This document shows positions 7,532 through 64,000 of a stretch of 64,000 nucleotides of DNA, piece by piece. Each line of letters starts with the position of its first letter. The first letter of the stretch is position 1. Source of the DNA: Oligoflexales bacterium (GTDB taxonomy: Bacteria > Bdellovibrionota_B > Oligoflexia > Oligoflexales > JAPPIL01); the NCBI GenBank assembly GCA_965226195.1, contig OZ245333.1:1313759-1377758 (forward strand). Direction: 5' to 3'. Under the pieces are notes generated by a model. It was not told the DNA's origin. It did not search any database and saw only the letters and a program-made list of their open reading frames with translations. The position numbers and the translations under genes were made by a program.

Positions 7532-7715
7532 GCGGGCTGCTAATTCTTTGCCGCTTGCTAGCTCCTCGCATGTCCTCCGCCGACTACGATTATGTCATAT
7601 TTGTCTTGCATTTTCTTACCTCTATGCTTTAGCGAGCGGTCTGCTAATTCTCTGCCGCTTTCTAGCTCCTCGCATGTCCCCCACCGACTACGATGATGTC
7701 ATATTTGCTTTGCGT
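7532..7715. repeat. two tandem units of about 100 bp, each containing a relic copy of the mnmG 5' end fused to the dispersed core motif
   Basis: Units at 7532-7611 and 7632-7715. On the minus strand they read [17 protein letters not shown] (7558-7611) and [17 protein letters not shown] (7662-7715). The live mnmG start reads [19 protein letters not shown]. The in-frame TAG comes from the GGAGCTAG core. Confidence 0.85.
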
Positions 7716-7870
7716 GCTTATACCCAAATCAAAACCCTGCAGATCAGGTTATACCACGTTTAGGCTGGTTTTAATTTAATTTTAGGCAAATAAATGTTAC
7801 AATTAGCGGCTTAAGCTACCCTGCTTGGCGAGTAGCTCAGCGGGGATAACAGAGAAGGGGGATTGTCATC

Positions 7871-8944
7871 ATGTTTGCTGACATGGAACAGATGGGACAT
7901 GAACAGGTTGTTTATTGTTTTGATCAGACTACAGGGCTGCACGCCCTGATTGGTATTCATAGCACGGTACTCGGCCCCGCACTGGGTGGGTGTCGCATGT
8001 GGAACTACGCTAACGAGCACGAAGCATTGCAGGATGTTCTGCGACTGTCGCGGGGCATGACCTACAAGGCGGCGTTGGCTGGCTTGGCTTTGGGAGGCGG
8101 TAAGTCGGTAATTTTTGGCGATCCTGTCAAGGACAAGAGCGAGGCATTGCTACGCAGCTTTGGCAGGTTTGTGAACAGTCTCGGCGGCAGATACATCACT
8201 GCGCAGGATGTTAGCATTAGCAACACTGACTTATTGCACATGCACAAGGAGACCAAGCATGTCGTCGGTCTACCAGCAGAGATGGGTGGTACTGGTGATC
8301 CCTCGCCGATGACGGCACTGGGTGTCTTCAGCGGTATCAAGGCTGCGGTCGAACATCGTTTGCAAAAGAACAGTTTGCGCGGCGTGCGAGTTGCCGTGCA
8401 GGGTTGCGGCAGTGTTGGGAATAAGCTCTGCCACCTGCTGCACAAAGAAGGAGCTGAATTGTGGATCGGTGATATCGATGCGAACAAAACTGCACCGCTG
8501 GTGGCAAGCTGCGGGGCGAAGGTGATAGATAGCGATGCACTGCTATGTGCTGAAGTCGATGTGTTCTCTCCTTGTGCCCTCGGCGCAATTTTGGACGACG
8601 ACAGCATTCCGCAACTGCAGGCCAAAATCGTCGCAGGTGGTGCGAACAACCAGCTAGCAGACGAGAAAGTACATGACGAGATGCTGCGCACCCGCAATAT
8701 TCTCTACGCGCCTGACTATGTCATCAATGCAGGTGGGTTGATCAGCGTTTCGTATGAAATTAAAAAAATGACAGGCACAGCCGCCGAAAAAACCAAAGCA
8801 ATCTATGACACGTTGTTGGAAATCTTCCACCGTGCCGAACAACAGGGTGAAGGCACCGGCAAGACCTCCAACCGTCTCGCCGAAGAGCGGGTGCGTCGGC
8901 AGGTAAGAGCTTCTATCAGCAACCAGCAACGATTGATTGGCTAA
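7871..8944 (+). CDS. leucine dehydrogenase (Glu/Leu/Phe/Val dehydrogenase family)
   Basis: LGPALGGCRMWNY, RLSRGMTYKAALAGLALGGGKSVIFGDP and the NAD-binding VAVQGCGSVG motif closely match the LeuDH pattern. Confidence 0.88.
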   Translation: MFADMEQMGHEQVVYCFDQTTGLHALIGIHSTVLGPALGGCRMWNYANEHEALQDVLRLSRGMTYKAALAGLALGGGKSVIFGDPVKDKSEALLRSFGRFVNSLGGRYITAQDVSISNTDLLHMHKETKHVVGLPAEMGGTGDPSPMTALGVFSGIKAAVEHRLQKNSLRGVRVAVQGCGSVGNKLCHLLHKEGAELWIGDIDANKTAPLVASCGAKVIDSDALLCAEVDVFSPCALGAILDDDSIPQLQAKIVAGGANNQLADEKVHDEMLRTRNILYAPDYVINAGGLISVSYEIKKMTGTAAEKTKAIYDTLLEIFHRAEQQGEGTGKTSNRLAEERVRRQVRASISNQQRLIG

Positions 8945-8954
8945 AACACGAAAT

Positions 8955-9650
8955 TCAAGCAAAGAGCAGTTTCTCCAGTGCCGCGATGCGCTGATTGCTG
9001 TCCAGCTGCTCCCAGTCGGGTAGTTGGTGCAGGTTGCCGTTCTTCAAAACGATGGCACGATCGCACAGCTGCGCGGCGAGCGGTAAAATGTGGGTGCTGA
9101 TCACGTTACTGAGCTGCTGTTGCTTGCGGCTCGTGAGGAGCTCGTGCAGGGTTCTGAGGTGAAAGACATCAAGGCCAGAGAACGGCTCGTCGAGCACCAA
9201 TAGCGGTGGCTGATGCAGGGTGGTGACAGCAAGACCAACTCGCTTCTGCATGCCATGCGAGCAGAGGGTCAGCGGCAAGCTCTTGTAGTGCGCACAATCC
9301 CAACGCTGGAGAGCCAGCGGCACGACTGTGGCACTGTTCAAGCCGTAAAGACGCGCGGCGTAATGCAGCAGTTCCTCGCCGCTAACCCACGGGGGAAAGA
9401 CAGGTGTCTGTGGTAGGAAACCGAGTGCTTTTTTAAGCGCAAAGGCTTCGGGGGTGAAGCGCTGAGCGCGGAAAACTACCTCACCTGCGTCAGGGTCTAG
9501 GTTGGCGGTCATCAGATTGAAGAGGGTGGACTTGCCCGCACCGTTTTTGCCGAGAATTCCGAGTGTTTCGGCACTGTTGACCTGCAGGTTGCAGGGGCCG
9601 AGTTGGAAGCCTGCGGCGAAGGTTTTGTGAATGTCGGTCAGGGTCATCAT
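8955..9650 (-). CDS. ABC transporter ATP-binding protein
   Basis: Walker A GKNGAGKST, a signature-like SHGMQKR and Walker B LLVLDEPFSGLD. Confidence 0.9.
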   Translation of the reverse strand: MMTLTDIHKTFAAGFQLGPCNLQVNSAETLGILGKNGAGKSTLFNLMTANLDPDAGEVVFRAQRFTPEAFALKKALGFLPQTPVFPPWVSGEELLHYAARLYGLNSATVVPLALQRWDCAHYKSLPLTLCSHGMQKRVGLAVTTLHQPPLLVLDEPFSGLDVFHLRTLHELLTSRKQQQLSNVISTHILPLAAQLCDRAIVLKNGNLHQLPDWEQLDSNQRIAALEKLLFA

Positions 9651-10702
9651 GCGCGATAAAACCTACCTTCGCTGTACTGCAACGCATACCAACGCAACAG
9701 CGGATACAGCAGCACGCTGAACCAGCTGGCGAGGATGGCAGTGCCGATGAACAAGGTACTGAGTGTCGCGGTAATATACTGCACCGCGGGACGGCGCACA
9801 TCGATTTGAAACAATAGCAGCGGCATCAGCAGCGGGGCAAGTGCGGCCAGCAGCACGACCTTTAGGACTGCGGGGAGAAGTGGCAATATTGGCTCAGCCA
9901 ACAGCAGTTGCCCACTGATGAAGCAAAAAGCGCAGCACAGCACACAGCAGAGGGCGAGGCTCGCACCAATTTTTTCGCAGGTGCGAACGTATTGGGTGTG
10001 CGAGATGCCGAAGTTTTTTTCCGCCCACGCAAACTGTGCGTCACGAGCTGCCTGTGATGCAAGGCTAAAGGAGGCCAGCAGTCCACAAACGAGTGCTGCG
10101 CAACCAAACACCTGCAGCGGTGCGTTGAGGTAGCTGAGCGGGAAACAACTCAACGCGGCACAAGCGGCGATGCCGAGCAGCAAGCGTTCGCCCTGCAAAA
10201 TCTGCTGCCAGCGCCACGAGAACAGCGTGTGCTGGCTAGCCTTGTGCTGTGGTACGGGGTGGGGGTGGCGGGCGAGCAAGAAGCCGAGCAACAGTGTGGG
10301 CGGAAAAACAAACAGCAGAGATATAAAGGAATTAGCACGCAACAGCAGGTGGCAGAGCAGCACTATGACGGCGGTACTTATCAGCAGCGCCCAGCCGCCG
10401 CGTAGCAAGAGAAAGACGCGTAGCTGGTGTGGTTCTGCGCCGAGATGTCGTTGTAGTTGGCAATAGCGGTCGTGGCTGGCATGGCGCATAAACTTGCCGA
10501 GACCGAAGGCGGTGATCGCGGTGCAAAGTAGTGCGGCTGCATGGGCGAAGCTGTCACGCATTGTAGGGGAGATGGCAGCGACGGCATGGTTGAGAAAATC
10601 GTGGAAGACATAAGCGAAGGTGGCAGCAACGACAAGGGCGCAGAGCATCACGGTGATTTCCTTGCCGAGATCGTAGCGCACCCGGCGCAGCGGTGCAAGC
10701 AT
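9647..10702 (-). CDS. polytopic membrane protein, putative permease partner of the ABC ATPase
   Basis: Multiple hydrophobic segments and a 4-nt overlap with the ATPase start. I prefer the ATG at 10702 (MLAPLRRVRYDL) because the track start at 10897 overlaps the ferredoxin gene. Confidence 0.55.
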   Translation of the reverse strand: MLAPLRRVRYDLGKEITVMLCALVVAATFAYVFHDFLNHAVAAISPTMRDSFAHAAALLCTAITAFGLGKFMRHASHDRYCQLQRHLGAEPHQLRVFLLLRGGWALLISTAVIVLLCHLLLRANSFISLLFVFPPTLLLGFLLARHPHPVPQHKASQHTLFSWRWQQILQGERLLLGIAACAALSCFPLSYLNAPLQVFGCAALVCGLLASFSLASQAARDAQFAWAEKNFGISHTQYVRTCEKIGASLALCCVLCCAFCFISGQLLLAEPILPLLPAVLKVVLLAALAPLLMPLLLFQIDVRRPAVQYITATLSTLFIGTAILASWFSVLLYPLLRWYALQYSEGRFYRA

Positions 10703-10751
10703 GCTACACCTGAACAGATATGTGCAGGTTGAGTGCAGGGCTTGGCAGCTT

Positions 10752-11057
10752 TTAGTCGGCATCGATGCAAATTTCCACGTCGCCCATGATACGGCTCTGG
10801 CAGGCGAGGCGTTCGTCGGGATCGGCACGCATAGCCCGCAAAAAATCCTCCTCTTTAGCATTGCGTGGGGAAATATTTTCCCCACCTTGCAGGACACGGA
10901 AGATACAGGTACCGCAATCGGCGTTGCGGCAGCCGAATTCGATGGGGGTGTCGTCGTGCTGTGCGCACAGTGCTTGAAAGCCCAGCCCGCACCGCACCTG
11001 CCATGAACGTGGTGGTGCGGGTGGTTTGGTGATGGTGACGGTGCAGGCTTGTTTCAA
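10752..11057 (-). CDS. 2Fe-2S ferredoxin-like protein
   Basis: Cys pattern C-x4-C-x2-C ... C (FGCRNADCGTCIFRV ... LACQSRI), typical of the plant-type 2Fe-2S fold. Confidence 0.7.
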   Translation of the reverse strand: MKQACTVTITKPPAPPRSWQVRCGLGFQALCAQHDDTPIEFGCRNADCGTCIFRVLQGGENISPRNAKEEDFLRAMRADPDERLACQSRIMGDVEICIDAD

Positions 11058-11413
11058 GGTGTGTCCTTTTCTTTCGGCATCAGTTGTTCCCGCCAGAATG
11101 ATTTTTTGTAGAACTTGCCGCGGTATCTTTTGTGTGTGGGGTTATCGACCATAAAGCCACGCCCGCGCTGGTCATCGACCCAATCGATGGTCGAGCCAGT
11201 GACAAAACGTAGACTGTCGGTATCGACGATGACATCGACTTTGCCTTGTGGGAAGTGGTGATCGCTCGGTGTGGGATGATCGAAAGCCACACCATAATAG
11301 AAGCCATCACAACCCTTACCTTCGAGATAGAGGCGCAGGCTAGGCTTGCCCGCATCCTGTTGCAGCTCCTCTGCTTTAGTAACAGCTCGTTCTGATAAGG
11401 TGATACTCATCAT
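11054..11413 (-). CDS. HesB/IscA-like protein lacking the C-terminal Cys pair
   Basis: LRLYLEGKGCDGFYYGVAFD matches the IscA/HesB core. The C-terminus GFMVDNPTHKRYRGKFYKK has no CGC motif. Confidence 0.65.
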   Translation of the reverse strand: MMSITLSERAVTKAEELQQDAGKPSLRLYLEGKGCDGFYYGVAFDHPTPSDHHFPQGKVDVIVDTDSLRFVTGSTIDWVDDQRGRGFMVDNPTHKRYRGKFYKKSFWREQLMPKEKDTP

Positions 11414-11604
11414 AACCTCCTTGCAGAGGTGATTTGAGCAGAAAGCGAGCTAAAATTCAATGCCGAATTTTGGTGGTAAGGGAGGATGATGGAAGAAAAA
11501 AATGTGGTTCTGTGTCATAATTATTTGATTTTATTTTTCTTTGCAGATAAACTCGTTAGCAGTGGTAGGTTTTTGATTACAATCACTTGTGTAGGAGAGT
11601 AGTT

Positions 11605-12762
11605 ATGCGTTTTCTGATCACAGCCCTCGTCTTCGGCTTGGCTTCCATTGCTCAAGCTGGCGATCAAGACAAGCACGGAGATGGCAAGACGACGGTCAAA
11701 CTTTCATATGACTGGAGTGTGTCTGTCACCGATGAGAATCTCGGACGAGATACGGAGGATGATGGAGATTTTAAAGTCAGGGCAATTGAGAACAGTGCTG
11801 ATGCCGAGATTGATTTCAGCAAAGAATGGGGTGGTGTCAAAGTCGATGTTAGCTACAACTTGGTAAACGGTCTGGAGAGCGCGGTTGCAACTGCGGAATT
11901 GCCCCATAGTTACCTGAGTGTTGCCTTTGGTAAGGGCGTGTTGGATGTTGGTGGTTGGCAGGAGTATTCATCTCCGTACCTCTCTTACCACAACCCGTTT
12001 CCAGAGTATGGGCCGATGGTGAAGGTCTTTGCCCCGATCGAAGGTTTCGGTGAGTTGTCCTTGATGATTACTAACGATGTGATGGAAGGCGACGACAAGC
12101 GTTGGCACAACGACGACAAGTCGATCATTGGTCTCGCCCAGTACAAAGGCAGCTTTGGTGCCGTTTCTCCCTTGTTGCAGTTCGCGATGTATGACTTCAA
12201 GTCCGGCGGCGATGACGACAGCAAAGACGGCTGGCAGTCATGGGTAATGGCATTAGGGGCGAAGATCGCTTTGCACAACTTGACAGTGCATCTTGATTAC
12301 GTTCACGACAGCCGCAAGAACAAAGATGGTGAGAAGGATATTGAGAATAGCACCACCGTTTATCGTAACTACACTGCGGGTTTATACTACGAGCAAGGCA
12401 TGGTTTCGCCGTGGGCGAGCATTTCGATGCTAATGTCTAAAAACGACGATAAGCGTTATGAAAACATCGAAGGTAACTACATGCCACCTGCTGAAGGTGC
12501 TGGCAAAGATTACGATGAGGCGTTGAAGAAGATGTTCGGTGTAGAGAGCTACGGTGACCTCAAAGACTACCAAAAATACAGCTCCAACATGATGGTCTTG
12601 GAGGTTGGCACATACATCAAATGTATAGAGGATAAGGTGCTTCCTTATATCTCTTACAAGATGAAAATGCACAAGATTGATACAGACTGGACTAAAGGAG
12701 ACAGCGACACAGCTGATCAGACCAGTCACAGTATTACCTTTGGTATTGAAGGCGTTATCTGA
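11605..12762 (+). CDS. putative outer-membrane beta-barrel (porin-like) protein
   Basis: The ATG at 11605 follows an AGGAGA RBS. Signal peptide MRFLITALVFGLASIAQA. Alternating amphipathic, aromatic and Gly-rich segments. A strong terminator lies downstream. Confidence 0.4.
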   Translation: MRFLITALVFGLASIAQAGDQDKHGDGKTTVKLSYDWSVSVTDENLGRDTEDDGDFKVRAIENSADAEIDFSKEWGGVKVDVSYNLVNGLESAVATAELPHSYLSVAFGKGVLDVGGWQEYSSPYLSYHNPFPEYGPMVKVFAPIEGFGELSLMITNDVMEGDDKRWHNDDKSIIGLAQYKGSFGAVSPLLQFAMYDFKSGGDDDSKDGWQSWVMALGAKIALHNLTVHLDYVHDSRKNKDGEKDIENSTTVYRNYTAGLYYEQGMVSPWASISMLMSKNDDKRYENIEGNYMPPAEGAGKDYDEALKKMFGVESYGDLKDYQKYSSNMMVLEVGTYIKCIEDKVLPYISYKMKMHKIDTDWTKGDSDTADQTSHSITFGIEGVI

Positions 12763-12788
12763 TTTCTGCCGCAACGCAGGATTTTGTC

Positions 12789-12820
12789 AAAGCTGGGGGC
12801 GTGTGTCCCCCAGCTTTTTC
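12789..12820 (+). terminator. rho-independent terminator
   Basis: AAAGCTGGGGG-cgtgtgt-CCCCCAGCTTT followed by a T-run, directly after the stop at 12762. Confidence 0.8.
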
Positions 12821-12892
12821 TATGTTATCTTGACGGTAGCATCTCGTAGGTGGTAGTTAGTCTCGTTTGTATTGAGCAAGGAGATTCTGACG

Positions 12893-13213
12893 GTGAGTTT
12901 GCAGGTTTTTACGGACGACAATTTTGATGCTGAGGTGCTCAAGTCGTCGCAACCAGTGTTGGTTGATTTCTGGGCTCCTTGGTGTGGCCCTTGTGTTTCA
13001 ATTACGCCTGCGATAGAGGCGATTGCAACAGAGTGGCACGGGCGGGTGACGGTTGGCAAGGTGAACGTAGACGAGAACGCCAATACACCGGCGGCCTATG
13101 GGGTGCGTTCGATTCCTTACTTTGTGCTAATCAAAGATGGTGAAGTTATCGACACTGTTGTCGGAGCTTCAAAAGAAAAATTAACGGCAATGCTCGAAAA
13201 AAACATCAGCTGA
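12893..13213 (+). CDS. trxA: thioredoxin
   Basis: WAPWCGPC active site. The GTG at 12893 lies 9 nt after AAGGAG. The track start at 12872 (TTG) is the alternative. Confidence 0.92.
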   Translation: MSLQVFTDDNFDAEVLKSSQPVLVDFWAPWCGPCVSITPAIEAIATEWHGRVTVGKVNVDENANTPAAYGVRSIPYFVLIKDGEVIDTVVGASKEKLTAMLEKNIS

Positions 13214-13815
13214 GTGCTATCGCGGGTATCGACGAGGTAGGGCGGGGCTGTTTGGCTGGCCCTGTGTTCGCAGCTTGTGTGGTGCTCGATCAGTCGCGAC
13301 TGGCACGTTTGCCGGATGCTGAACGCAGTCTGATACGTGACTCGAAGAAACTGACTGCGCGGCAGCGGACGAAGGTGTTACCCGCGATTTTGCAGGTTGC
13401 GTGCAGCTATGCGTTCGGTGCGGCGGTCGTTGCCGAAATCGAGCGACTTGGCATTCAGACGGCCACGTTTCTTGCCATGCGTCGTGCTCTGTGCTTGCTA
13501 CCACCACCTGATTTGTTGCGTGTCGATGGGCGGTTTGTTGTGCCTGAGGTCGAGATCGCACAGCAGGCAGTGGTAGGTGGTGATAGCTTGCATGCGGAGA
13601 TTGCCGCGGCTTCGATCGTGGCGAAGGTGGCACGCGATCGCTGGATGACGGCACAGGCGGTGCGTTATCCGCAGTATCATTTTGAACGGCATGTCGGGTA
13701 TGGAACGCGTCTCCATCTGCAAAAAATCAGCGAGCACGGTATCTGCCCTCTGCACCGCCGCAACTTCGCCCCCATCAAAGACTTTGTCACCCAAGCAACG
13801 TGCTCAAGCAGGTGA
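13210..13815 (+). CDS. rnhB: ribonuclease HII (start codon uncertain)
   Basis: The catalytic N-terminal motif AGIDEVGRGCLAGPV is encoded at 13222-13266. That puts most of it upstream of the first canonical start (TTG 13252). Only the CTG at 13210 or other non-canonical codons are available in frame. Confidence 0.85.
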   Translation: MSAIAGIDEVGRGCLAGPVFAACVVLDQSRLARLPDAERSLIRDSKKLTARQRTKVLPAILQVACSYAFGAAVVAEIERLGIQTATFLAMRRALCLLPPPDLLRVDGRFVVPEVEIAQQAVVGGDSLHAEIAAASIVAKVARDRWMTAQAVRYPQYHFERHVGYGTRLHLQKISEHGICPLHRRNFAPIKDFVTQATCSSR

Positions 13816-14131: not shown

Positions 14132-14200
14132 TGAAGGTGGTGACATCGAGATAGTGGTGCTACAATTGTGGTAAAGCCTGTGTGAAAAGCGGTGAGTTAG

Positions 14201-14668: not shown

Positions 14669-14693
14669 ATCGCTTTTTTGTTCAGAGACATGC

Positions 14694-17081: not shown

Positions 17082-17086
17082 TATGT

Positions 17087-18007: not shown

Positions 18008-18039
18008 AGCTGTTAAGATAACAGAACAGGCCGCATGGT

Positions 18040-19238: not shown

Positions 19239-19452
19239 TCGAAAGAGATTCAGTGATCTGATGCTGCTGTGAGTGCCAGACAAAGCACGGTACTTATGTT
19301 TTTCCTCTCGTGCGTGCTACGCAAGACTTTTTGCCGCTTGCTAGCTCCTATGCTTGCTCTCCTCGGCGGGGGCCTATCGGAGTAGCAACAGCCCTCACCA
19401 GCATAGATAGGCAGAGGTTGTTGGCAGCAATCAGATCACTGAATCTCTTTCG
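19239..19452. mobile_element. 214-bp MITE-like element bounded by about 28-nt inverted repeats
   Basis: Arm 19239-19266 (TCGAAAGAGATTCAGTGATCTGATGCTG) is the reverse complement of arm 19425-19452 with one mismatch. The interior carries a core-motif copy (19327-19348). Confidence 0.65.
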
Positions 19453-19699
19453 CCAGCCTCTAAAGCCGCGAGCCTTGATTCGGGGTTTGGTTTTGTGGAG
19501 AGAACAAGCACTGTGCCTGAACACATGAAGCGAGCTGGAGCTAGGCAGCGGCAGGGAGTCTCGCTCGCGAAGCGAGCGTTACAAATAAGGCGGCGTAGCG
19601 AGCGTTGATACGGTTTGGTTTTGTGGGATAGTGCTTGCTACACCTAAGTCTGTGATGTCCGCAAATATTAACAAGGGGGCAGTAGGTATCATCACTGTG

Positions 19700-19885
19700 A
19701 ACCCATTTCACGCGAATGCGCCAGCTGGAGCTAGGAAGCGACAAAGAGCTTGCACACATGTGTGCATGGTGCAGCAGGATGCTTCCTCCCAATCCCAAAC
19801 AAAATTAGCGAACAGAAGGGGTGTGGAGCTAGAAAGCGGCAAAGAGCCGTGCAAAGCGGGGAGGGGAACGCTCCCCGCATACAGA
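19700..19885. repeat. partial copy of the interior modules of the 41140/57653 MITE (no terminal repeats)
   Basis: CCATTTCACGC..CAGCTGGAGCTAGGAAGCGACAAAGAGC..GCACACATGTGTGCATG...GTGTGGAGCTAGAAAGCGGCAAAGAGCCGTGCAAAGCGGGGAGGGGAACGCTCCCCGCATA aligns with 41297-41570 and 57810-58005. Confidence 0.8.
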
Positions 19886-26189: not shown

Positions 26190-28802
26190 CTCTTGCCATT
26201 TGCCATTTACCCAGCTTGCCGACCATTTGCTCGGCTTGCTTTGCGACTTTCTCGGCTCCATGCCGCTTTCTCGCTCCATGCCGCTTTCTCGCTCCGCCAT
26301 CCCGACGAGATAGTAGCTGCGTGTTTTGCGGCTGAATTTGATTGCCACCTTGTTGCCTTCATTGTCCAGCGGCGGTGCTTCGAGCAAAAATTGAAATTTA
26401 GGATCAATTTCGCTTGCATGCCGTTGCAGGTCTTCGACTAGCGGCGCACGTGTTTCCCGTGACCGCGGGTAGTTGCTTGATGCGAGAAAAATTCCCGACG
26501 CACCGTCCCGCAACACAAAATAGCCGTCCGATTTTTCACAGCGCAACTCAGGCATAGGCACGGGGTCGGCGCGCGGCGGAGCAGCTTCGCCGTTACGCAG
26601 CAACTTGCGGGTGTTCTTGCATTCAGGATAAGCCGTGCAAGAAAAGTATTTGCCGAAACGCCCTGTCTTCAGCTGCATGTCCCTGCCGCACTTGTCGCAG
26701 GTCAGCAGCGGCCCCTCATACCCCTTGATCTTGAAGTTGCCATGTTCAATCTCGTAGGCAGAGCAGTCGGGATTGTTGGCGCAGATGTGCAAACATCGCT
26801 GTGCATCAATAAGGTAGGCTGTCATCGCCGTCGCACAATTCGGACAACGATGCCGCGCTTGCAGTTCTTTCACCCCCTCATCATCATCGCTGACCGTCTC
26901 TTCACCCGCGACGAGATTGATCGTCTCTTTGCAACGTTCCTTAGGCGGTAGCTGATAGCCCGAACAACTCAAGAATACCCCCGTCGAAGCATTCCTGATC
27001 ATCATATTGCGCTCACATTTGCACTTGAGTTTGATCTCCGTCGGGGCGTTGGGACGCATGTTTTCTTCTGCCGCCTGCAGGGTTGATTTGAAGTTGCCGT
27101 AAAAATCGTTTAGCACCTGTAGCCACTTTGCCCTGCCATCCGCGATCGCATCCAGATCCTCCTCCATGCTGGCGGTGAAGCCAAAATTCATCAGCCTCTG
27201 GAAATTTTCTTCGAGCCGACTGGTAACGATGTCACCCATCTTGAGCAGGTAAAAACGCCGCTTCTCGACTTTCACATAACCGCGCTCTTGGATCGTTGAA
27301 ATAATGTTCGCATACGTTGACGGTCTCCCAATGCCGCTCTTTTCCAACTCCCTGACCAGTGCGGCTTCGGAATAACGCGGCGGTGGGCGGGTGAACCGCT
27401 GGTTTTCTTCAATATCGATGAGCTTCAGCACCTCGCCTTCACGCAACTCTGGCAAGATCACGTCTGTCTCTTTACTGACGGGTGGCAGCACCTTCTGGTA
27501 GCCATCTAATTTCAAGATACGGCCGCGCACTTTCAGTTCAAACTCTTCTGCCGTAATCGTGACCGTTGTCGTATCAAATTCCGTCCGTGCCATCTGGCTG
27601 GACACGAAATAACGCCAAATCAACTCGTAGAGACGCACCGCCTCTGCATCTTTAAAGACAAAATTCTGCGGTATGAGTTGCACGTCCGTCGGGCGAATTG
27701 CTTCATGAGCTTCCTGAGCTGCTTTGCTGCTTGCGTAGACGTTCGCGCTTTGCGGCAAATATGGCTTGGAGAAGTTGCTGCCGATGTAAGCTCGACACGC
27801 GGCAATGGCATCCTTGCTAACGTTGGTCGAATCGGTACGCATGTAGGTGATGTGTCCTGCCTCGTAGAGACGCTGGGCAAACATCATTGTTTTGCGCACC
27901 CCGAAGTTGAGACGTGTGCTTGCCGCTTGCTGCAAAGTCGAAGTAATCAGCGGGGCGGGCGGCTTCGATTGTGCTGCCTTCTTCTCGCAGGCACTGACGA
28001 CGAAACGACATTGTCGCAAGTGTGCGCTCTTTTGTGCGCAGCTGTCCTTATCGAGCGGACGAAACGGTTTATCTTGTTCTTTGACCACCTGTGCTTTGAG
28101 CTGGCTGCCGTTTTTAAGGTTGCAGAAAACTTCCCAGAACTCTTCGATCTTGAAGGCGTTGATTTCCTTCTCACGCAAGGCAATCAGCTTGACCGCCACC
28201 GATTGCACCCGCCCTGCCGACAGACCGCGGGCGATTTTTTTCCACAGCAGAGGCGATACCATGTAGCCGACGACACGGTCGAGGAAACGCCGCGCCTGCT
28301 GGGCGTTGACACGATCCATGTTGATTTTCTGCGGTTGTGCGAATGCCTCTTGCACCGCCTTGCGGGTAATTTCGCTGAACGTCACCCGTCGATAGCGTTC
28401 TTCCGCTCCGCCAATCGCCTCACGCAGATGCCACGCGATCGCTTCGCCTTCACGGTCAAGGTCGGTAGCGAGGTAGATGATATCGGCAGTTTTTGCCAGT
28501 GTCTTCAGCTCCTTCAGCACTTTTTCCTTGCCCGGCAAAATCTCGTAATATGCTTGCCAGTTGTTGTCTGGATCGACAGCAAGACGGTTGATCAGTGCGT
28601 CGTGGGTGGATTTTTTGCTCGTCGTCTTTTGCTTCGCCGCCGTGGGTTTCTTGCGCCCACCACCGCTAGTTGGCAGGTCACGCACATGCCCGATACTCGA
28701 TTTAACGACATACTGCCGTCCCAGGTACTTGTTAATTGTGCGAGCTTTCGCGGGCGACTCGACGATGACCAGACTTTTAGTGGCAGCCAAAATATGCCCC
28801 AA
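26181..28802 (-). CDS. topA: DNA topoisomerase I with a repeat-derived C-terminal tail
   Basis: TOPRIM N-terminus [18 protein letters not shown], active-site region and multiple C4 Zn ribbons. The tail reads ...[22 protein letters not shown]. Confidence 0.95.
26245..26295. repeat. tandem 18-bp units related to the dispersed core motif, inside the topA 3' end
   Basis: ATGCCGCTTTCTCGCTCC occurs twice (26260-26295) after a degenerate unit. It resembles ATGCCGCTTTCTGCTTCG and CCGCTTTCTAGCTCC in the 63261 array. Confidence 0.7.
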
Positions 28803-30098: not shown

Positions 30099-30111
30099 GT
30101 GTAAGTCGCAA

Positions 30112-41083: not shown

Positions 41084-41740
41084 TGATGGCATAGTGTCTG
41101 CTAATACCTATATCCATCTTTGCGGGCGAGGGTTGTTGCGACTTTGTTGCATAACTCAGGGCAGGCATGTTTATATCCTATAACCCTTTAGCAGTAAGAA
41201 TTTTATAGGTGTTGCAAAGGTAATGCTTGCACTACGCACAAGCCCATAGTGTCCACAGAAGTTGACAATGGTCAGGTGCAAGCAGACCTGCAAACCATTT
41301 CACGCCAATGCTTCAGCTGGAGCTAGGAAGCGACAAAGAGCATGCACACATGTGTGCATGCTGCAGCAGGATGATTGCACCTGACCCAAACGAGAAGTCT
41401 GCGAACACGCAGGGGTGTGGAGCTAGGCGTGCCTTCGGGCACGCCTTTGGCAAAGAGCCGCGCAAAGCGGGGAGGGGAACGCCAAACGGAGCGAGACAAC
41501 ATGCAAGCGTAGCTTGTGATGTTGCGAGCGGAGTGCAGGGGTCAGCGAAGCTAACGCTCCCCGCATAAAAATGCTATGATAACAGCATGTTATAATCAAC
41601 GGAACTTATGCAACAAAGCCGGTTGTTGCGACCTCGGTAGGCTCCTGCCAAGAGGCGCAAGCAAGCCTCGCCCGCATGGGAAAAATGCATAAGTACCATG
41701 CATTATCTGGCAAATACAGCAGACACTATGCCATCACCTT
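41084..41740. mobile_element. outer inverted-repeat-bounded element carrying a nested MITE
   Basis: AAGGTGATGGCATAGTGTCTGCT (about 41087-41109) is the reverse complement of AGCAGACACTATGCCATCACCTT (about 41717-41739). An inner pair GCGGGCGAGG/CCTCGCCCGC is also present. Confidence 0.55.
41140..41620. mobile_element. MITE copy 1 (481 bp) with terminal inverted repeats
   Basis: Left end (G)ACTTTGTTGCATAACT and right end ACTTATGCAACAAAGCC. It is flanked by the direct repeat GGTTGTTGCGA (41131-41141 and 41621-31). It has no ORF and is near-identical to 57653-58058 apart from an extra segment of about 75 bp. Confidence 0.85.
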
Positions 41741-41834
41741 CATTCAGCACAATAAAAAGCAAAGGGCATGCCCCGTCAGGAGCGAGAAAGCGGCAAAGAG
41801 CCTTGCGCTAGCGAGCAGATGAGAAATAACACAC

Positions 41835-57451: not shown

Positions 57452-57652
57452 ACAAAACGACAGGTGCGCCAACAAGGGAGAGTTTGCTGACGCACCAATC
57501 TCCAGCCGGGAATATCGGTCGCACCCGCGCCGGAATTCTATTACCACCCTCTTATTCAAGTGATCGGAATTTTTTAAACTTTTGTAAAAAAATATAATTT
57601 ACTCTTTTTATTTTAAGATGTTATCTGGCTATTTTTTTGACGTGCTCCTACC

Positions 57653-58058
57653 GGCTTTGTTGCATAACTCAGGGCCGGCATGTTTATATCCTATAACCCT
57701 TCAGCAGTAAGAATTTTATAGGTGTTGCCAAGGTAATGCCTGCACCACGCACAAGCCCGTAGTGTCCACAGAAGTTGACAATGGTCAGGTGCAAGCAGAC
57801 CTGCAAACCATTTCACGCCAATGCTTCAGCTGGAGCTAGGAAGCGACAAAGAGCATGCACACATGTGTGCATGCTGCAGCAGGATGATTGCACCTGACTC
57901 AAACGAGAAGTCTGCGAACACGCAGGGGTGTGGAGCTAGGCGTGCCTTCGGGCACGCCTTTGGCAAAGAGCCGCGCAAAGCGGGGAGGGGAACGATCCCC
58001 ACATAAAAGTGCTATGATAACAGCATGTTATAATCAACGGAACTTATGCAACAAAGCC
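57653..58058. mobile_element. MITE copy 2 (406 bp)
   Basis: GGCTTTGTTGCATAACT ... ACTTATGCAACAAAGCC. The interior is near-identical to 41140-41620. Confidence 0.88.
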
Positions 58059-58109
58059 GAGTCAGCCACCCCACATAGCTAGCTGACTCCCTATTTTCGT
58101 GATGCTCGC

Positions 58110-58916
58110 CTAGAGCGCTAAGGCATCCGCGTTGACTTTGAGTTTGTAGAACCGTGCCATTGCCTTCAGTATGACCCGCAGGTTGTCGTCATCCTCCAAG
58201 CTAGTCACGTTACGGAAACTGGTAACAGAAGTAACGTCATGCCAGTATTGATGTGTGACAATGGCAGTTGGGCTGAACTGATGCGTAAAAAAGCCAGTTT
58301 TTATTGCCTTGGGGTATGCTCGACCTGCGTCATCACCGCTACGCTTCCTGCGTGCGTCTCGCTTAGTAAGCTTTATCCATTCATGAACCGCAACAATTGC
58401 CATGCCAGTACCAAAAACAATACTGGCAGTACCAAAAAGAATCGGGAATTCACTTGTGTAGCCAGTTGATATAGCCAACGCCACATCAAGTACTCCTGTC
58501 CCAATGAGTAGAGTACCTAAAATCCCATTCGTTACAACTCTTTCCCCAACGCCATCTGCTTCATCGAGCGGCGACTGACCTAGCTCTCTAGCTTCAGATG
58601 CGAATTCAGATTCCAGATGTGTGACATCCTTATGTGCTGCATCCAGCTTGTTGCCGATAAAATCAACCTCTTGGCCACTTTTGCTCAGCAACGCACTGCG
58701 GCACACGTTCTTATCAGCAAACGTTGCGGCACTGTATTCTGGCAATTTTTTGCAGACCAGCAAACGATAGCGCTGATCTTTTGCTGTTGATCCAGCCTGC
58801 AAAGGCACGATTCCCAGCACATGTTCGCCGTTGGTTATCGCGGCGGTCTTTGCTACAGGACTCTGACCACAAGCACAGATAGCCAAACAAATTAATGAAG
58901 ATAATAGCTTAGACAT
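58110..58916 (-). CDS. hypothetical lipoprotein/membrane protein, tandem paralog 1
   Basis: The ATG at 58916 gives MSKLLSSLICLAICACGQ (lipobox). A central hydrophobic region is present, and the C-terminus ...MARFYKLKVNADALAL is conserved with paralog 2. Confidence 0.6.
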   Translation of the reverse strand: MSKLLSSLICLAICACGQSPVAKTAAITNGEHVLGIVPLQAGSTAKDQRYRLLVCKKLPEYSAATFADKNVCRSALLSKSGQEVDFIGNKLDAAHKDVTHLESEFASEARELGQSPLDEADGVGERVVTNGILGTLLIGTGVLDVALAISTGYTSEFPILFGTASIVFGTGMAIVAVHEWIKLTKRDARRKRSGDDAGRAYPKAIKTGFFTHQFSPTAIVTHQYWHDVTSVTSFRNVTSLEDDDNLRVILKAMARFYKLKVNADALAL

Positions 58917-59053
58917 GTTACTTTCCTTAAGTAAAATAGGCAAATCACATATATAATATTCACAATAATATTGCAATAGGAAATTTTTTAAAAAATTATA
59001 GTAAGTTACAGGTCAGCGGCACAGAGTTCAATTGAATTCAGCCGCGGGGCATT

Positions 59054-59194
59054 GCAGGCCAGCACACTGTTTGCTAAACACGGTCAGCTTTCATATCGAC
59101 GGTGTGTATGGAGAAGATCTGGTCTTAGGCCTCGACCTTGCCGGCTTTGCTGTTTCTAGCGGCAGTGCTTGTTCGTCAGGAATAGCTCGCAGCA
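59054..59194 (+). pseudogene. relic fragment of the cysteine desulfurase gene
   Basis: Aligns with 57131-57272 at roughly 90% identity by eye ([39 protein letters not shown]). Confidence 0.85.
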
Positions 59195-59241
59195 CAGCCA
59201 CCCCACATAGCTAGCTGACTCCCTATCTTAGTGATGCCCTC

Positions 59242-60078
59242 CTAGAGTGCTAAGGCATCCGTGTTGACTTTGAGTTTGTAGAACCGTGCCATTGCCACTA
59301 GTATGGCACGCAAGTTGCTCTCGTATTCCAAGTTAGTCACAGCGCGGAAATCAACCAAAGAAATGTCCCGCCAGTGTTGATGTGCGATTAGGTCAGTTGG
59401 GATGAGCTTAGCTTTAGAAATGCGACCCCTTGCTGTCCTCTTGGGATATTCTCGCCCCGCGTCATCACCGCTACGCTCTCTGCGTTCGTTACGCTTAGCG
59501 ATCTTTATCCCCCTGTTAACTGCACCAACTACTATGAGCGCACCAAAAACAATAAGGCCAGCAGTAGCAACAACACTAGTAACGTGTATCAAAGAGTCAA
59601 GACCAGAAGCGGGGGGAGTAGATACCTTGTCTGCACTGAGGAGATGCTTTTGATATAATACCCCTAAAAGAACAGATAGCCCCCCAATCATTGCATGAGA
59701 CGCAACTGAACTTCCCCTTTTTTCGCTGAGCGGCGACTGGCCAAACTCCCTAGCTGCAGGTGCTAAGTAAGACTCCAGATGTGTGACATCCTTACTTACT
59801 CCATCCAGCTTGTTGCCAACAAGATCAACCTCTTGGCCATCTTTAGTCAGCAGAGCACTGCGGCAGACGTTCTGGTCAGCAAACTCTGCGGCACTGTATG
59901 CTGGCAATTTCTTGCAAACCAGCAGACGATAGCGTTGATCTTCTGCTGTTGCACCGCCCCGCAAAGGCACGATGCCTAGCACGTGCTTGCTGTTGGCTAC
60001 CGCCGCGGTCTTTGCTACAGGATTTTGACCGCAAGCGCACATAGCTAAACAAATCAATAAATATAATAGTTTATGCAT
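59242..60078 (-). CDS. hypothetical lipoprotein/membrane protein, tandem paralog 2
   Basis: The ATG at 60078 gives MHKLLYLLICLAMCACGQ. The N-terminal 120 aa or so and the C-terminal 80 aa or so resemble paralog 1, and the middle is unrelated. Confidence 0.6.
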   Translation of the reverse strand: MHKLLYLLICLAMCACGQNPVAKTAAVANSKHVLGIVPLRGGATAEDQRYRLLVCKKLPAYSAAEFADQNVCRSALLTKDGQEVDLVGNKLDGVSKDVTHLESYLAPAAREFGQSPLSEKRGSSVASHAMIGGLSVLLGVLYQKHLLSADKVSTPPASGLDSLIHVTSVVATAGLIVFGALIVVGAVNRGIKIAKRNERRERSGDDAGREYPKRTARGRISKAKLIPTDLIAHQHWRDISLVDFRAVTNLEYESNLRAILVAMARFYKLKVNTDALAL

Positions 60079-60189
60079 GTATCTATCCTTAAAATAAAAA
60101 ATACCAATTATATTATATAATTTTAATAATAAAATTGCAATAGTAAAAATTATCAAAGATTAAAGTAATTTACAGATAAGCGATACAGT

Positions 60190-61305
60190 TCAGTGGAACT
60201 CCGCCGCGGGGCATTGCAGACCAGCTGAACAGGGTTTGAAGGTGAGTTTGGCAAAGCCGGGCACGTCGCCACGTGGTTTCAAGCTCATCCACATGCCCTT
60301 GAGCTTGAGAGCACGATCGAACATGATGTGGCCGAGCGTAAACTCCTTTTTGTGCTTCTCCGCAGTGGTGCGCATCTCATAGCGGAAGAAACTGTCTTTC
60401 TGCTTGCGGTCGTCGGGGAAGGTAGTGACGTTGAGGTGTTCCTTAACCCCGATGGAATAGAAGAATACCAACTGGTGCGGCTCGTAGGACTGCAGCAGTA
60501 CCCTTGCCAGCAGCAAGTGCGTCCACTTGAGTTGCACGAGCGCGTGTGCCAGCTGCATAAACTCGGTGTCTCCCCGTGCACTGGCATCAAAGGGTAACTC
60601 TTGCATGGCTGGCAGCGCGGGCGCAGTGCCTTGTTGTAACTCAAGCACGGCATGGTAGGTTGTGTTTATCAGCGCGAGCATGTTTTGCTCTAACAAACAC
60701 TTGCCGCGGCGTTTTTTGTGAGAAATTCTTTTTGTGCGCAGTTCGTTTTCTTTTTTATTAATTTCTGCCGTAACTTTATCACGTTCAAAAAACCTTTTCC
60801 CAGCAAATTTAATCTCAACCTGTGTGTCAAGATTGCTAAACGCATAAGCAGCACGCTTAGCGATGTGTAGCTTAGAAAAACCACGATAGCATGCCTCTAC
60901 CAGTTCAAGCAGTTCGGTTTCCCTTCCGCTGACTTCTTGCCCAAATTTTTGCAACTTACCTATCTGTCTGCTCCGCTCCAAAGCTAGCCAGCTAAGTCGC
61001 AGCGGCAGTGTCACTCCGTTATACTCCTTGTTGCTAGTGGTGTAGGTGCTGTCGGCATGGTAAAAACGCATAGGTTGATTTTCGAGATACTGCTGCCCTT
61101 TATCTGTCGGGGCAAGATAGCCAGCAATCATGATCTGCTGGCCTTGCTCGGCAGCTCGCACATGCATGTGGGCAATTGTTCCCTTTGCGGTGGCATTGAC
61201 AGACCAACTAAAAGTTTGAATCGTGGCAGTGCTAGTGTCCACCCGTGCCTTGAACTTTATCGTGCAACTGGCGAGTAAAATTAAAACAACAGGCATAATC
61301 TTCAT
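60190..61305 (-). CDS. hypothetical lipoprotein
   Basis: MKIMPVVLILLASC lipobox. No recognisable domain. Confidence 0.55.
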   Translation of the reverse strand: MKIMPVVLILLASCTIKFKARVDTSTATIQTFSWSVNATAKGTIAHMHVRAAEQGQQIMIAGYLAPTDKGQQYLENQPMRFYHADSTYTTSNKEYNGVTLPLRLSWLALERSRQIGKLQKFGQEVSGRETELLELVEACYRGFSKLHIAKRAAYAFSNLDTQVEIKFAGKRFFERDKVTAEINKKENELRTKRISHKKRRGKCLLEQNMLALINTTYHAVLELQQGTAPALPAMQELPFDASARGDTEFMQLAHALVQLKWTHLLLARVLLQSYEPHQLVFFYSIGVKEHLNVTTFPDDRKQKDSFFRYEMRTTAEKHKKEFTLGHIMFDRALKLKGMWMSLKPRGDVPGFAKLTFKPCSAGLQCPAAEFH

Positions 61306-61439
61306 TTTTTGTCCCCATTGACGCGGTGTTATACCCATCTCCAGCTAAAGTTAGTCACTATCTTCCTGCGTACGCGTGGTCGGTAGATGAGGTGCAAAAG
61401 CTTAGTGTCGCAGGTATAATAGTTAACAGGAGGTGATGT

Positions 61440-61955
61440 ATGCAGGACGGCTGGATTTCTATCAACGACTACGCTCGCAAGTTCAACGTCTCGGACATCA
61501 CTGTGCGCAGACGTATCAAACAGGGCAAAATACCCGCAGAACTGAAAAACGGCAAATACTACGTCAGAGCCGATTACCAAGATACGAGCACAGCTGCAGG
61601 GCAGAACGCCACTCCGCCACCGGGAGTTGTCTCCACCACCCGTCCCTCGTTCTCACTACCGCCACCGCCAACCAGCGTGTCCTACACGGCTACCGAGCCA
61701 CCCAAAGTCGTTGCGACAGAAATACCCATGCAGACTACCCCCCCTCCAGCGCAGCAGAGCAAAGAACTACTGGAGTTCTGCGATCGCTATCTCGCCGAGC
61801 TAAAGACTAGAGAACAGCATCTTGCCAAAAGACATGAGTCAGAGATAGCCCTGCTCGAAGCCAAGCTCGCCAAGAAGGACAGCGAAATCACCGCCCTAAA
61901 ACAACAAATCGAAGATCTGCAACTACTCGTTAAAATTCTCGAAAACAAAATTTAA
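61440..61955 (+). CDS. excisionase/MerR-like HTH protein with Pro-rich linker and C-terminal coiled coil
   Basis: ISINDYARKFNVSDITVRRRIKQGKIPAELKNGKYYV resembles the excisionase-family HTH. The C-terminus reads LEAKLAKKDSEITALKQQIEDLQLLVKILENK. Confidence 0.6.
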   Translation: MQDGWISINDYARKFNVSDITVRRRIKQGKIPAELKNGKYYVRADYQDTSTAAGQNATPPPGVVSTTRPSFSLPPPPTSVSYTATEPPKVVATEIPMQTTPPPAQQSKELLEFCDRYLAELKTREQHLAKRHESEIALLEAKLAKKDSEITALKQQIEDLQLLVKILENKI

Positions 61956-62177
61956 ACCAGTGAAAATTTACTGTGCCGTTCTGTATTTGCGATCCAATGC
62001 AGCACTGCTGCCAAAGACGTATTGAGTAGCTGAGCTTAAGATGCCGCAGCATTTATCCGTCAGTCTGTGTCAACCAAAAATATAGTTTTACTTAATACAA
62101 AAATTTGTCTATATTCCCTTCAAAAGTTCCGAGTGTAGGTCGGCTGCCGATCTGAGTGCTGTCGATGAGGAGGGGAG

Positions 62178-64000
62178 ATGCACGTGCGGGCAACGAGCTG
62201 TCTGGCTCTGCTGCTGTTCTGTGTTGCGCCGCTGCACGCGAGTGAGCGCGTCGATGCGTTGCTGGCACGCAGCGAAGCACGTCTTGGTGGTCTTGGTGGG
62301 CTTGATGCTGATCCTACCGAACTGCCCAAACCACCGTTTGGCGAAGCACTCGTCTCGCCGCTAAACATCGCCACCTTCCTCGCAGGCGTAGGTGTAGCCG
62401 AAGGTATCAACTCCCAACTGCTCAACGACCCGATGCGATTACAGGAATACTTCGTTTCACTCGGACAGCCGCTGACCTACATAGCCTTCATGATTTTCGA
62501 CATGTCCCGCTACACGATCAGCCGCAGCCTCTATCCGCTGACCTCCAACCCTTACACTATTCGCAGTCATCGTGATCTCAATTTCATCGACAAAACTGGT
62601 GGCTACATCGCCCTTGCGGGTGCATCGACCGTCTTGCACCTGCTGTTTGAAATTATCTACTCACCGCATTTCAAAAAACTACAAACCGCTTCCGATGCAA
62701 CCGCCTTCAAACACGATTTAAATAAGCTGCTGCGGGAAAATTTTCTTTCCACTGATCGCTGGATTGGCCGCGGCATCGGCACAACCACCCTGCTCGCCGC
62801 CGCCGTCAGTCAAGGCTATGTCGCGGGCTTGCGCATGCCCCTGCAAGAAAAAATTAAAAGCACCATCTATCGTGCCATTGCCAGCCGCCCGCTGGTCGCC
62901 GATGACTTGTTGCTGCAAACGTCTTATGACGGACACGGCCTCTATGTGGAAAACATTATCGCCAAAAAAAATGGGGCAATTAACCATGCCGACCTCACCA
63001 AATACCTACACCAGCCGATCAAACTGAAAAAAGTTACCATCATGCTGCCCCGCTTCAAACTGAAGGGCAAGTATCTCGCCTTCACTGGTGCAAGCGTCGG
63101 GATAATGCTGCACGTGCTCGATATGGCGCTGTTCATCGAATTCGATCACCTCTACACCGCCCTGATCGAACAACCGCTGTGGCAGTTTATCCATGCACAA
63201 CGCATCGCCAAACTGAACACCACCATCAAGGACATCTGTGCCAGCTTGCTGCGCTCGCAGGACTCTTTGCCGCTTTCTGCTTCGCGGGACTCTTTGCCGC
63301 TTTCTGCTTCGCGGGACTCTTTGCCGCTTTCTAGCTCCATGCCGCTTTCTGCTTCGCGGGACTCTTTGCCGCTTTCTAGCTCCATGCCGCTTTCTGCTTC
63401 GCGGGACTCTTTGCCGCTTTCTAGCTCCATGCCGCTTTCTGCTTCGCAGGACTCTTTGCCGCTTTCTAGCTCGCTGCGCTCGCAGGACTCTTTGCCGCTT
63501 TCTGCTTCGCGGGACTCTTTGCCGCTTTCTAGCTCCATGCCGCTTTCTGCTTCGCGGGACTCTTTGCCGCTTTCTAGCTCCATGCCGCTTTCTGCTTCGC
63601 AGGACTCTTTGCCGCTTTCTAGCTCCACGCCCGACCTGCAAAAGCTGCGTTCCCATCTCGACCAGCTGTCACAAAGCTGGTTCGATTACCGCATGCTGTT
63701 CATTCTCAAACTGCTGATGTCCTTGCGTAGCTGGCACGATGAACTAATGCACCAAGATCGCCGCTTCTACCAACGCCTGTCCTTCTATCGCTGGCTGCTT
63801 AAAGGTGGTGACTATCACGACGCACAGTTTCTCTACAACAATCACAACTGGCACGCTGCGCCGCACCGCGCAGAGTTTCAACGCACCAAAACCAAAATGA
63901 TCAAAGACATGTTCTATGGCTTTCGCCAACTCGATTTTTTCAACTACAGTTTCTTCGGCAAAACTATTGCCCACCAGCACTTCCCCGCCATTATTCCGCC
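62178..64000 (+). CDS. secreted protein with a Ser/Leu/Pro tandem-repeat region (3' end beyond the window)
   Basis: Translated by hand: ATG 62178, signal MHVRATSCLALLLFCVAPLHA, and no stop up to position 64000 (more than 607 codons). It is missing from the ORF track, presumably because it has no stop in the window. Confidence 0.6.
   Translation, partial: MHVRATSCLALLLFCVAPLHASERVDALLARSEARLGGLGGLDADPTELPKPPFGEALVSPLNIATFLAGVGVAEGINSQLLNDPMRLQEYFVSLGQPLTYIAFMIFDMSRYTISRSLYPLTSNPYTIRSHRDLNFIDKTGGYIALAGASTVLHLLFEIIYSPHFKKLQTASDATAFKHDLNKLLRENFLSTDRWIGRGIGTTTLLAAAVSQGYVAGLRMPLQEKIKSTIYRAIASRPLVADDLLLQTSYDGHGLYVENIIAKKNGAINHADLTKYLHQPIKLKKVTIMLPRFKLKGKYLAFTGASVGIMLHVLDMALFIEFDHLYTALIEQPLWQFIHAQRIAKLNTTIKDICASLLRSQDSLPLSASRDSLPLSASRDSLPLSSSMPLSASRDSLPLSSSMPLSASRDSLPLSSSMPLSASQDSLPLSSSLRSQDSLPLSASRDSLPLSSSMPLSASRDSLPLSSSMPLSASQDSLPLSSSTPDLQKLRSHLDQLSQSWFDYRMLFILKLLMSLRSWHDELMHQDRRFYQRLSFYRWLLKGGDYHDAQFLYNNHNWHAAPHRAEFQRTKTKMIKDMFYGFRQLDFFNYSFFGKTIAHQHFPAIIP
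63261..63626. repeat. tandem array of 27-, 36- and 45-bp units built on the dispersed core motif
   Basis: There are 10 units. GACTCTTTGCCGCTTTCTGCTTCGCGG encodes DSLPLSASR. GACTCTTTGCCGCTTTCTAGCTCCATGCCGCTTTCTGCTTCGCGG encodes DSLPLSSSMPLSASR. All unit lengths are multiples of 3. Confidence 0.92.

Follow-up and report, generated by a model that had tools for sequence, protein, structure and literature searches.

Short repeated sequences of several kinds are known in prokaryotic genomes. Repetitive extragenic palindromic sequences (REPs) are imperfect palindromes of 20-40 nt that lie outside genes, and their core is conserved by co-evolution with an enzyme, the REP-associated tyrosine transposase (RAYT). 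DNA uptake sequences are motifs of 9-12 nt that occur about once per kb and are enriched in genes and terminators. Mycobacterial interspersed repetitive units (MIRUs) and other variable-number tandem repeats (VNTRs) are compared below by their generally known anatomy. Rickettsia palindromic elements (RPEs) are palindromic elements of ~100-150 bp that are inserted as single units. RPEs behave as short selfish repeats; they are found between genes, and they also enter unrelated housekeeping genes in frame, with the resulting extra peptide being tolerated (PMC10969869). The tandem repeats of Borgs evolve fast in both spacers and genes, and their in-gene units are divisible by three (PMC9879509). 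The inserts that these in-gene repeats encode are rich in S/P/E/K and probably disordered, and the proteins concerned are often secreted or located in the membrane; flanking partial repeats act as seeds, and according to the authors the repeat regions arise independently (PMC9879509). Here we describe a 22-nt motif, GGAGCTAGAAAGCGGCAAAGAG, in a 64,000-nt stretch of an Oligoflexales bacterium genome (assembly GCA_965226195.1, contig OZ245333.1, positions 1,313,759 to 1,377,758, forward strand; the window). We interpret the motif, with a probability of about 0.6, as the core of a lineage-specific family of dispersed short repeats, comparable to minisatellites that share one core, with an origin by patch insertion or template switching followed by local growth of arrays.

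A pattern search of the window allowing up to 3 mismatches gave 17 matches on both strands, and the same search gave none in dinucleotide-preserving shuffles (0/100). Every site that the initial annotation had listed for a dispersed 22-nt motif was present, although the second of the two copies beside mnmG starts at 7648 and not at 7649. The core is purine-rich (18/22 bases) and non-palindromic, and its predicted fold was no better than that of shuffled sequences (z = -1.7, -0.4, and +1.1). A hairpin or REP-like structure of the core was ruled out by these scores; the GC hairpins that follow some copies are unrelated, and none is common to the copies. The initial annotation had likened the motif to RPEs, and the likeness held for its behavior and not for its form. 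Readings of the motif or its surrounding modules as sigma-54-like, sigma-70-like, or terminator-like signals, judged by eye, were unconvincing.

The motif is not confined to the window. An exact scan with GGAGCKAGNAAGCGRCAAAGAG, using one genome per species, found at least 36 distinct 8-kb blocks on OY282434.1, from position 1 to 2.74 Mb, and among the matches listed there was one lone hit elsewhere, about what chance would give. OY282434.1 is the 2.84-Mb chromosome of a metagenome-assembled genome named 'uncultured Oligoflexales' (hereafter OY), and only topA and purA of the window align with it, at 83% nucleotide identity. Closer to the window are Logan contigs from ERR14231558/57, which are identical to it, and ENA contigs of 1.57 and 3.2 Mb, which are 93-99.6% identical. 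Loci of further relatives (numbered L) were fetched through topA, mnmG, and a 690-aa protein described below, and were thus chosen without regard to the motif. One of them (L039) carries nine copies with up to 3 mismatches in 22.5 kb and another (L040) carries four; loci L041, L042, L043 (from OY), L047, and L048 likewise carry copies. Loci L044, L045, and L046 contained no copy at this threshold, with only a degenerate variant in L045. Together these motif-unselected loci hold ~21 clusters in 236 kb, roughly one cluster per 10 kb. The dispersal that had been proposed from the window is therefore genome-wide in OY and extends to the relatives. The hosts are a clade of uncultured, ankyrin-rich Oligoflexales-like bacteria.

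A search that started from a single half-motif, AAGCGGCAA, recovered GGAGC(T/G)AG, its missing counterpart, at 71-98% per position in three separate genome groups, so the 22-mer is a real unit. A variant with a longer spacer, GAGCTAGGAAGCGAGCGATACAAA, was abundant in OY only. By crude gene calls, 9 of ~100 clusters lie inside genes and the remainder are intergenic. The intergenic copies of OY sit in mosaics of 0.3-2 kb built from many short modules; the flanking modules differ in the species of the window, and only the core is common between species. Alignment of the OY copies did not define a single long 'type A' element, as similarity decayed irregularly across a modular mosaic with no clean ends. 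No constant element boundaries and no target duplication of fixed length were found. Flank duplications occurred at two loci only (mnmG and L041), and these are long tandem duplications of 46-50 nt rather than a regular target-site duplication. Since synteny with OY gave only the topA-purA segment for empty intergenic sites, orthologous sites were reached through protein look-ups.

The copies located in genes have been acquired. In topA, the basal state, which is also that of outgroups, reads ..SYYLVG-xxGDKx-SKWSASW.. and has no insert (proteins P0003, P0004, P0006, and P0008). The window array is inserted between the conserved ..SYYLVG and ..KPSKWSASW. The repeated 18-mer that had been placed in the last codons of topA is thus real and in frame, but it is an insertion located 18 codons before the stop. 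It consists of 2.7 units in the window, ~ten units in OY, and two units of a 36-nt composite in P0007. In the topA tree, the filled P0007 is sister to the empty P0008, while the window groups with P0001, P0002, and P0005, each of which keeps a single decayed unit; this single site must therefore have seen repeated gain or loss. An intergenic array in the OY locus L011 has the same sequence as the P0007 composite (locus L040), motif + CCTGGCGAGCGAAG + motif, and this identity excludes convergence.

The second case is the open reading frame (ORF) that begins at 62178 on the plus strand and runs past the end of the window (to 64000). Tandem Repeats Finder (TRF) confirmed that the reverse complement of the motif builds a 45-nt array in this ORF, read as (SRDSLPLSSSMPLSA)n and translated as S/L/P-rich repeats. 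The ORF belongs to a conserved family of ~690-aa proteins that are secreted and have no Pfam domain. At one and the same site of this family there is no insert in P0248 and P0250-53, one unit in P0243, with the exact 22-mer in its DNA, two to three units in P0244/45, ~six in P0242, and ~nine in both the window and its sister strain P0241, between which the array differs. Orthologues of TopA and of the 690-aa protein that have no motif also lack the peptide repeats, as the initial annotation had required of a spreading element, which argues that the in-gene copies are acquired DNA and not convergent low complexity. Aligned with these relatives, the arrays of both genes are evidently insertions. 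Most of the in-gene sequence comes from local tandem expansion, not from repeated insertion.

Further in-frame arrays were found in a NuoN-like gene (L022, P0255), a gene for a YjeF_N protein (P0254), a cytochrome c554-like gene (L039), a gene with a P_proprotein domain (L048), and the tail of a helicase gene (L025). The arrays seen in genes are all read in one of three hydrophilic frames that lack stops: ELESGKE, GARKRQR, or SLPLSSS. TAG occurs in two of the remaining frames of the motif, and no validated gene was seen to use the hydrophobic frame, LCRFLAP. The unit lengths in genes are all divisible by three (18, 27, 30, 36, and 45 nt), and intergenic arrays also have units of 38, 40, 44, 104, and 110 nt. 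In-frame short tandem repeats are not limited to this family: an 18 nt x 2.8 repeat of GACGACAACACCGAGACA at window positions 16458-16508, within the ORF 15933-17081, is unrelated to the motif.

Because the motif is purine-rich and its arrays encode low-complexity peptides, ordinary low-complexity convergence, or an assembly artefact, has to be weighed. Genes and spacers that are unrelated, and that belong to different species, share identical 22-mers and also a 58-nt composite, and the same arrays are present in the independent Logan and ENA assemblies. Together with the empty shuffles, the spread across OY, and the identical topA sequence, these results refute this explanation, whose probability we put at next to nothing. 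The interpretation as a spreading element is supported.

Comparison of close relatives showed how individual sites change. The initial annotation had noted motif copies near two relics of mnmG. The copies are near, but the relics are a product of the motif and not mere neighbors: each is a 104-nt unit composed of leader, mnmG codons 1-15, and motif. The array has 2 units in the window and 4.4 units in the sister strain L042, and the mnmG leader in OY (L043) and L044 has neither relic nor motif. An independently formed array of 110 nt x 4 is present at mnmG in L045. Its junction lies in GCGAAGCG, which is common to mnmG codons 16-19 (GGA TGC GAA GCG GCA) and to the motif variant of the leader. 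The relics are therefore tandem duplications that arose between the motif of the leader and a part of the gene that resembles it. As a separate difference, L042 (7392-8276) has an extra 294-aa gene between the genes for an ABC ATPase and glutamate dehydrogenase, which is absent in the window genome (L001, window ~8950).

Downstream of rpmG, the sister-strain contigs L049, L050, and L051 lack exactly window positions 41460-41780. This 321-nt deletion takes away the right end of one miniature inverted-repeat transposable element (MITE; copy 1 in Table 1), and in L050 and L051 its junction is an 11-nt sequence, GGCAAAGAGCC, that occurs both in the split motif copy of the MITE and in the solo copy at 41779. 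In L049 there is, in addition, a duplication of 29 nt with a junction, GCGAG, that is common to the 5' box of the motif and to the host sequence GCTAGCGAG; a new array seems to be arising here. Such an origin of arrays at motif/host junctions would explain why every locus has a unit length of its own (18, 27, 29, 36, 38, 44, 45, 104, and 110 nt). In L041, a 52-nt motif-bearing segment lies between 46-nt direct copies of host sequence in an A-X-A-B structure with GGAGC at the junction. The empty sites themselves resemble parts of the motif, with GTGGAA...CGGCAAG at the empty topA site and CTTTGCC at the empty site of the 690-aa gene. Comparison within and between species thus shows motif copies to be hot spots of short-homology recombination and slippage.

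Some copies are carried by a larger element. The MITE of the initial annotation was confirmed: the window contains two copies of a 408-bp element with 16-nt terminal inverted repeats and no transposase of its own. In each copy, the second motif that had been described as split by a hairpin is real and reads GGAGCTAG + 22 nt hairpin + GGCAAAGAG. A candidate target duplication, GTTGTTG, lies at one MITE copy and none at the other, and solo sequences that resemble MITE ends are located at 22499 (minus strand) and 44277 (plus strand). At the site corresponding to 57.6 kb, the sister strain L048 has no MITE, and an insertion sequence (IS) with a DDE_Tnp_1 transposase lies ~200 bp away. This IS (L048, 5515-6696) is intact; it encodes a DDE_Tnp_1_5/DDE_Tnp_1 transposase, has GGCGTTGTTGCATAAG within its long inverted ends, and represents the probable parent family of the window MITE. 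Its ends are similar to those of the MITE. The module at 19.7 kb is homologous to the interior of the MITE and corresponds to its internal two-motif segment without the MITE ends. The MITE is therefore a separate, IS-derived element that carries the motif as a passenger, and it is one route of motif spread.

If the motif is the core of a dispersed repeat family, new copies would arise by templated patch insertion or template switching and not through a cut-and-paste transposase, and their targets would be sites that already resemble part of the motif, so that microhomology seeds the insertion. After seeding, each array would grow locally. Recombination and slippage at the copies give variable arrays, a precise deletion between direct copies, and tandem duplications of adjacent host DNA, and some copies travel inside the IS-derived MITE. 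The mechanism is in part demonstrated by the compared strains, in recombination, slippage, and the MITE passenger, and in part, in microhomology seeding, it is what we infer.

Several points weigh against this interpretation. The core is letter-perfect in each species although topA DNA is 77-83% identical and the sites turn over; passive slippage and microhomology do not alone explain a constant core, which suggests a recognizing protein or a conserved master copy. The microhomology argument is drawn from three sites at which the 'empty' sequences are those of relatives and not of ancestors, so seeding keeps the status of an inference. A 106-nt element in L039 has perfect inverted 22-mer ends and looks transposon-like. 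In addition, whole genomes were sampled as fragments.

The constant core and the L039 element also bear on a different explanation, in which the 22-mer is the recognition end of a non-autonomous mobile element that is moved in trans by a dedicated sequence-specific enzyme encoded elsewhere. The inverted pair of L039 was the single such pair seen. In this region (L039, 9480-9735) the pair bounds the 106-nt element directly after a tRNA-like gene (by eye, of Gln type), and the first 24 nt of that gene are duplicated ahead of it. The best candidate enzyme is an expanded Rpn/YhgA-like family of PD-(D/E)XK proteins ('Transposase_31'), with a RAYT-like or DDE enzyme as the alternative. The 36 motif-bearing blocks of OY contain ~18 Rpn-like genes or gene fragments, and the 236 kb of unselected loci contain two partial Rpn matches, only one of them with the N-terminal part of Transposase_31. 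In 8 of 11 cases, OY repeat modules lie directly 3' of the stop codon of an Rpn gene in fixed orientation, and the proteins concerned are 24-44% identical. E. coli RpnA promotes RecA-independent recombination, which has been proposed to proceed by primer-template switching (PMC5350276), and such switching would fit the junctions seen here. However, RpnA cuts with little or no sequence specificity in vitro (PMC5350276). The missing fixed-length target duplication and constant boundary, and a core that is no palindrome, likewise count against a dedicated enzyme. No Rpn gene is present in the 64-kb window or in the sister-strain loci L042, L048, and L049, where arrays still vary. The Rpn enrichment is also confounded, since the OY blocks were selected by the motif and both features may simply gather in long spacers. 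We consider movement by a dedicated enzyme an unlikely, though substantial, alternative. That an Rpn/YhgA-like nuclease would recognize the 22-mer and keep its core invariant, with spread by nuclease-primed template switching, is a more specific proposal that we hold to be quite doubtful.

As an observation in its own right, the divergent Rpn/YhgA-like (Pfam Transposase_31) expansion lies in the repeat mosaics of OY (L009, L012, L014, L020, L028, L030, L031, L033, L036, and L038), with genes sometimes in tandem (1.5-kb period in L014 and L030). In L040 (10709-11670), a motif copy interrupts one Rpn-like gene, so that its N-terminal part and its HTH_Rpn_C part form two ORFs. Elsewhere in OY (L035, OY 584001-592000), a 2458-bp unit is tandemly triplicated and contains two genes without a Pfam domain, a repeat mosaic, and one motif copy each.

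The initial annotation had reported no mobilizing enzyme in the window, and this stood: no transposase domain was found in a Pfam scan of ~30 large ORFs at 17-64 kb, which left out ORFs overlapping the scanned ones in other frames, or in the gene/Pfam table of window positions 1-17509. The Pfam content of the window is that of ordinary housekeeping genes plus several ankyrin-repeat proteins. A search of viral contigs for the motif gave no match and thus no sign of phage origin.

A core that is kept across species and is mostly intergenic, with several copies in 5' leaders (mnmG in the window, ligA in L039), could also be a selected binding or regulatory site for a nucleoid-associated protein, transcription, or RNA processing, comparable to REPs, bacterial interspersed mosaic elements (BIMEs), or DNA uptake sequences, with arrays as by-products. 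However, across ~100 clusters there was no rule of distance or orientation relative to neighboring genes, and in OY no orientation pattern by replication strand or chromosome position was visible by eye. Orthologous sites are not conserved, as the mnmG leaders of OY and L044 are empty, and copy number varies within species. No conserved structure was seen, and Rfam gave no RNA family in the window at the gathering threshold or in six repeat-rich loci at E<=0.1. A regulatory role is therefore very unlikely as the explanation of the family. The features of the window that belong to the repeat family and its carrier are listed in Table 1.

Table 1. Coordinates of motif copies, arrays, and carrier elements in the window.
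Feature	Position	Strand	Remarks
Tandem duplication of mnmG leader + codons 1-15	7510..7724	-	Two 104-nt units; variable copy number
Motif copies within the mnmG duplication	7544-7565, 7648-7669	-	One per unit, at the junction
Solo intergenic copy, 2 mismatches	19327..19348	-	Divergent lptG-proS spacer
Weak degenerate copy GGAGCTAGGCAGCGGCAGGGAG, 4 mismatches, followed by GC hairpin	19535..19556	+	Read in the sequence
Module with two motif copies (19727 and 19825) at a distance of 98 nt	19700..19881	+	Repeat-family search
In-frame 18-nt x 2.7 array in topA, read ERESGM	26247..26295	-	TRF and alignment; core matches at 26256/26274
MITE copy 1, 16-nt terminal inverted repeats; intact motif 41319-41340 and split copy 41419-41457	41139..41621	+	
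Solo copy in the 3' region of rpmG (gene 41835-42002, minus strand)	41779..41800	+	
MITE copy 2, perfect 16-nt terminal inverted repeats; intact motif 57832-57853 and split copy 57932-57970	57652..58059	+	
Tandem array of 45-, 27-, and 18-nt blocks around the motif	63239..63631	-	TRF; translated on the plus strand; seven core copies between 63317 and 63626

Other repeats and duplications were also seen in the window, in which no tRNAs were found. Two 51-nt direct repeats (30102-30152 and 34407-34457, 80% identical) bracket a 4.3-kb segment with an ankyrin-acyltransferase gene and two further genes that are unknown. The second 51-nt repeat follows purA directly in OY (L013), which suggests that the repeats mediated either the insertion or the deletion of this segment. 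A 1.13-kb tandem duplication (58063-60225) has given rise to paralogous genes without a Pfam domain (58110-58976 and 59242-60156), with a 146-nt relic of the 3' end of an aminotransferase gene between them (57127-57272 ~ 59049-59194); the sister strain (L048) has one copy only. A 186-nt direct repeat (47691-47876 and 49265-49450, 79% identical) is shared by the 3' end of an acyl-CoA synthetase-like gene and the sequence that follows an ankyrin gene. The window encodes four ankyrin-repeat proteins (32580-34343, 35824-36921, 48721-49269, and 49564-50676), and more are encoded in the relatives' loci L040, L041, and L045. This abundance suggests a lifestyle associated with a eukaryotic host.

The family is a clear bacterial example of selfish or neutral repeat DNA that is written into essential proteins: a conserved secreted protein has gained ~130 residues, and topoisomerase I and NuoN also contain inserts. 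Unusually, the steps from empty site to single unit to long array are visible in close relatives. One short motif drives deletions, duplications of gene leaders, and copy-number variation within a species, and the variable arrays can serve directly as markers of strains in this uncultured lineage, which is probably host-associated. The constant core, together with the association with Rpn-like genes, is a testable lead on the natural role of 'Transposase_31' proteins. Recognition of the motif by an Rpn protein, if true, would provide the first natural repeated-DNA substrate for the Rpn family and a new class of repeat that spreads without transposition. No description of the family was found in the literature searched, in which the topical search was narrow, and a genome paper on Spirobacillus is silent on repeats and transposases; on this basis we regard the family as previously undescribed.

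Compared with known systems, the family shares with RPEs the in-frame entry into unrelated coding genes (topA, NuoN-like, 690-aa protein, cytochrome c554-like, YjeF_N, and P_proprotein). It differs from them in having a 22-nt non-palindromic core and array units of 18-45 nt in place of a long palindrome, in being usually amplified in tandem and read in three frames, and in a host that is not Rickettsia. With REPs, BIMEs, and REPINs it shares short, abundant, mostly extragenic copies in mosaic clusters, but the core is no palindrome and ~9% of clusters lie in genes; no RAYT (IS200/IS605-like Y1) gene turned up in the ORFs scanned, which came from genome fragments and were not searched specifically for RAYTs. 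DNA uptake sequences differ in length and distribution, as the motif here has 22 nt, occurs at ~one cluster per 10 kb, and is depleted in genes.

Among MITEs (e.g., Correia elements and BOX/RUP clusters), the 408-bp carrier finds its place by its terminal inverted repeats, the absence of its own transposase, and a related IS. The 22-mer itself does not, having neither terminal inverted repeats nor target duplications and occurring mostly outside the MITE. The clustering and nesting of repeat types known from pneumococcus repeats were also seen here. As in Borg repeats, units inside genes follow the rule of three, intergenic units are unconstrained, and the inserts are S/P/E/K-rich; unlike the independently arising Borg regions, all loci here, in several species, have one 22-mer in common. 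The family resembles MIRU/VNTR loci and the core-sharing minisatellites of eukaryotes in its arrays of 18-110-nt units at many loci with a common core, and in copy numbers that differ between close strains (mnmG, 2 vs 4.4 units; the 690-aa array). In contrast to these, each locus here builds its unit from the core and local sequence, many copies are solo, and arrays occur in essential genes. The motif family matches a dispersed VNTR/minisatellite family on all features tested, and we file it as a prokaryotic interspersed or tandem repeat of known kinds that is new in form.

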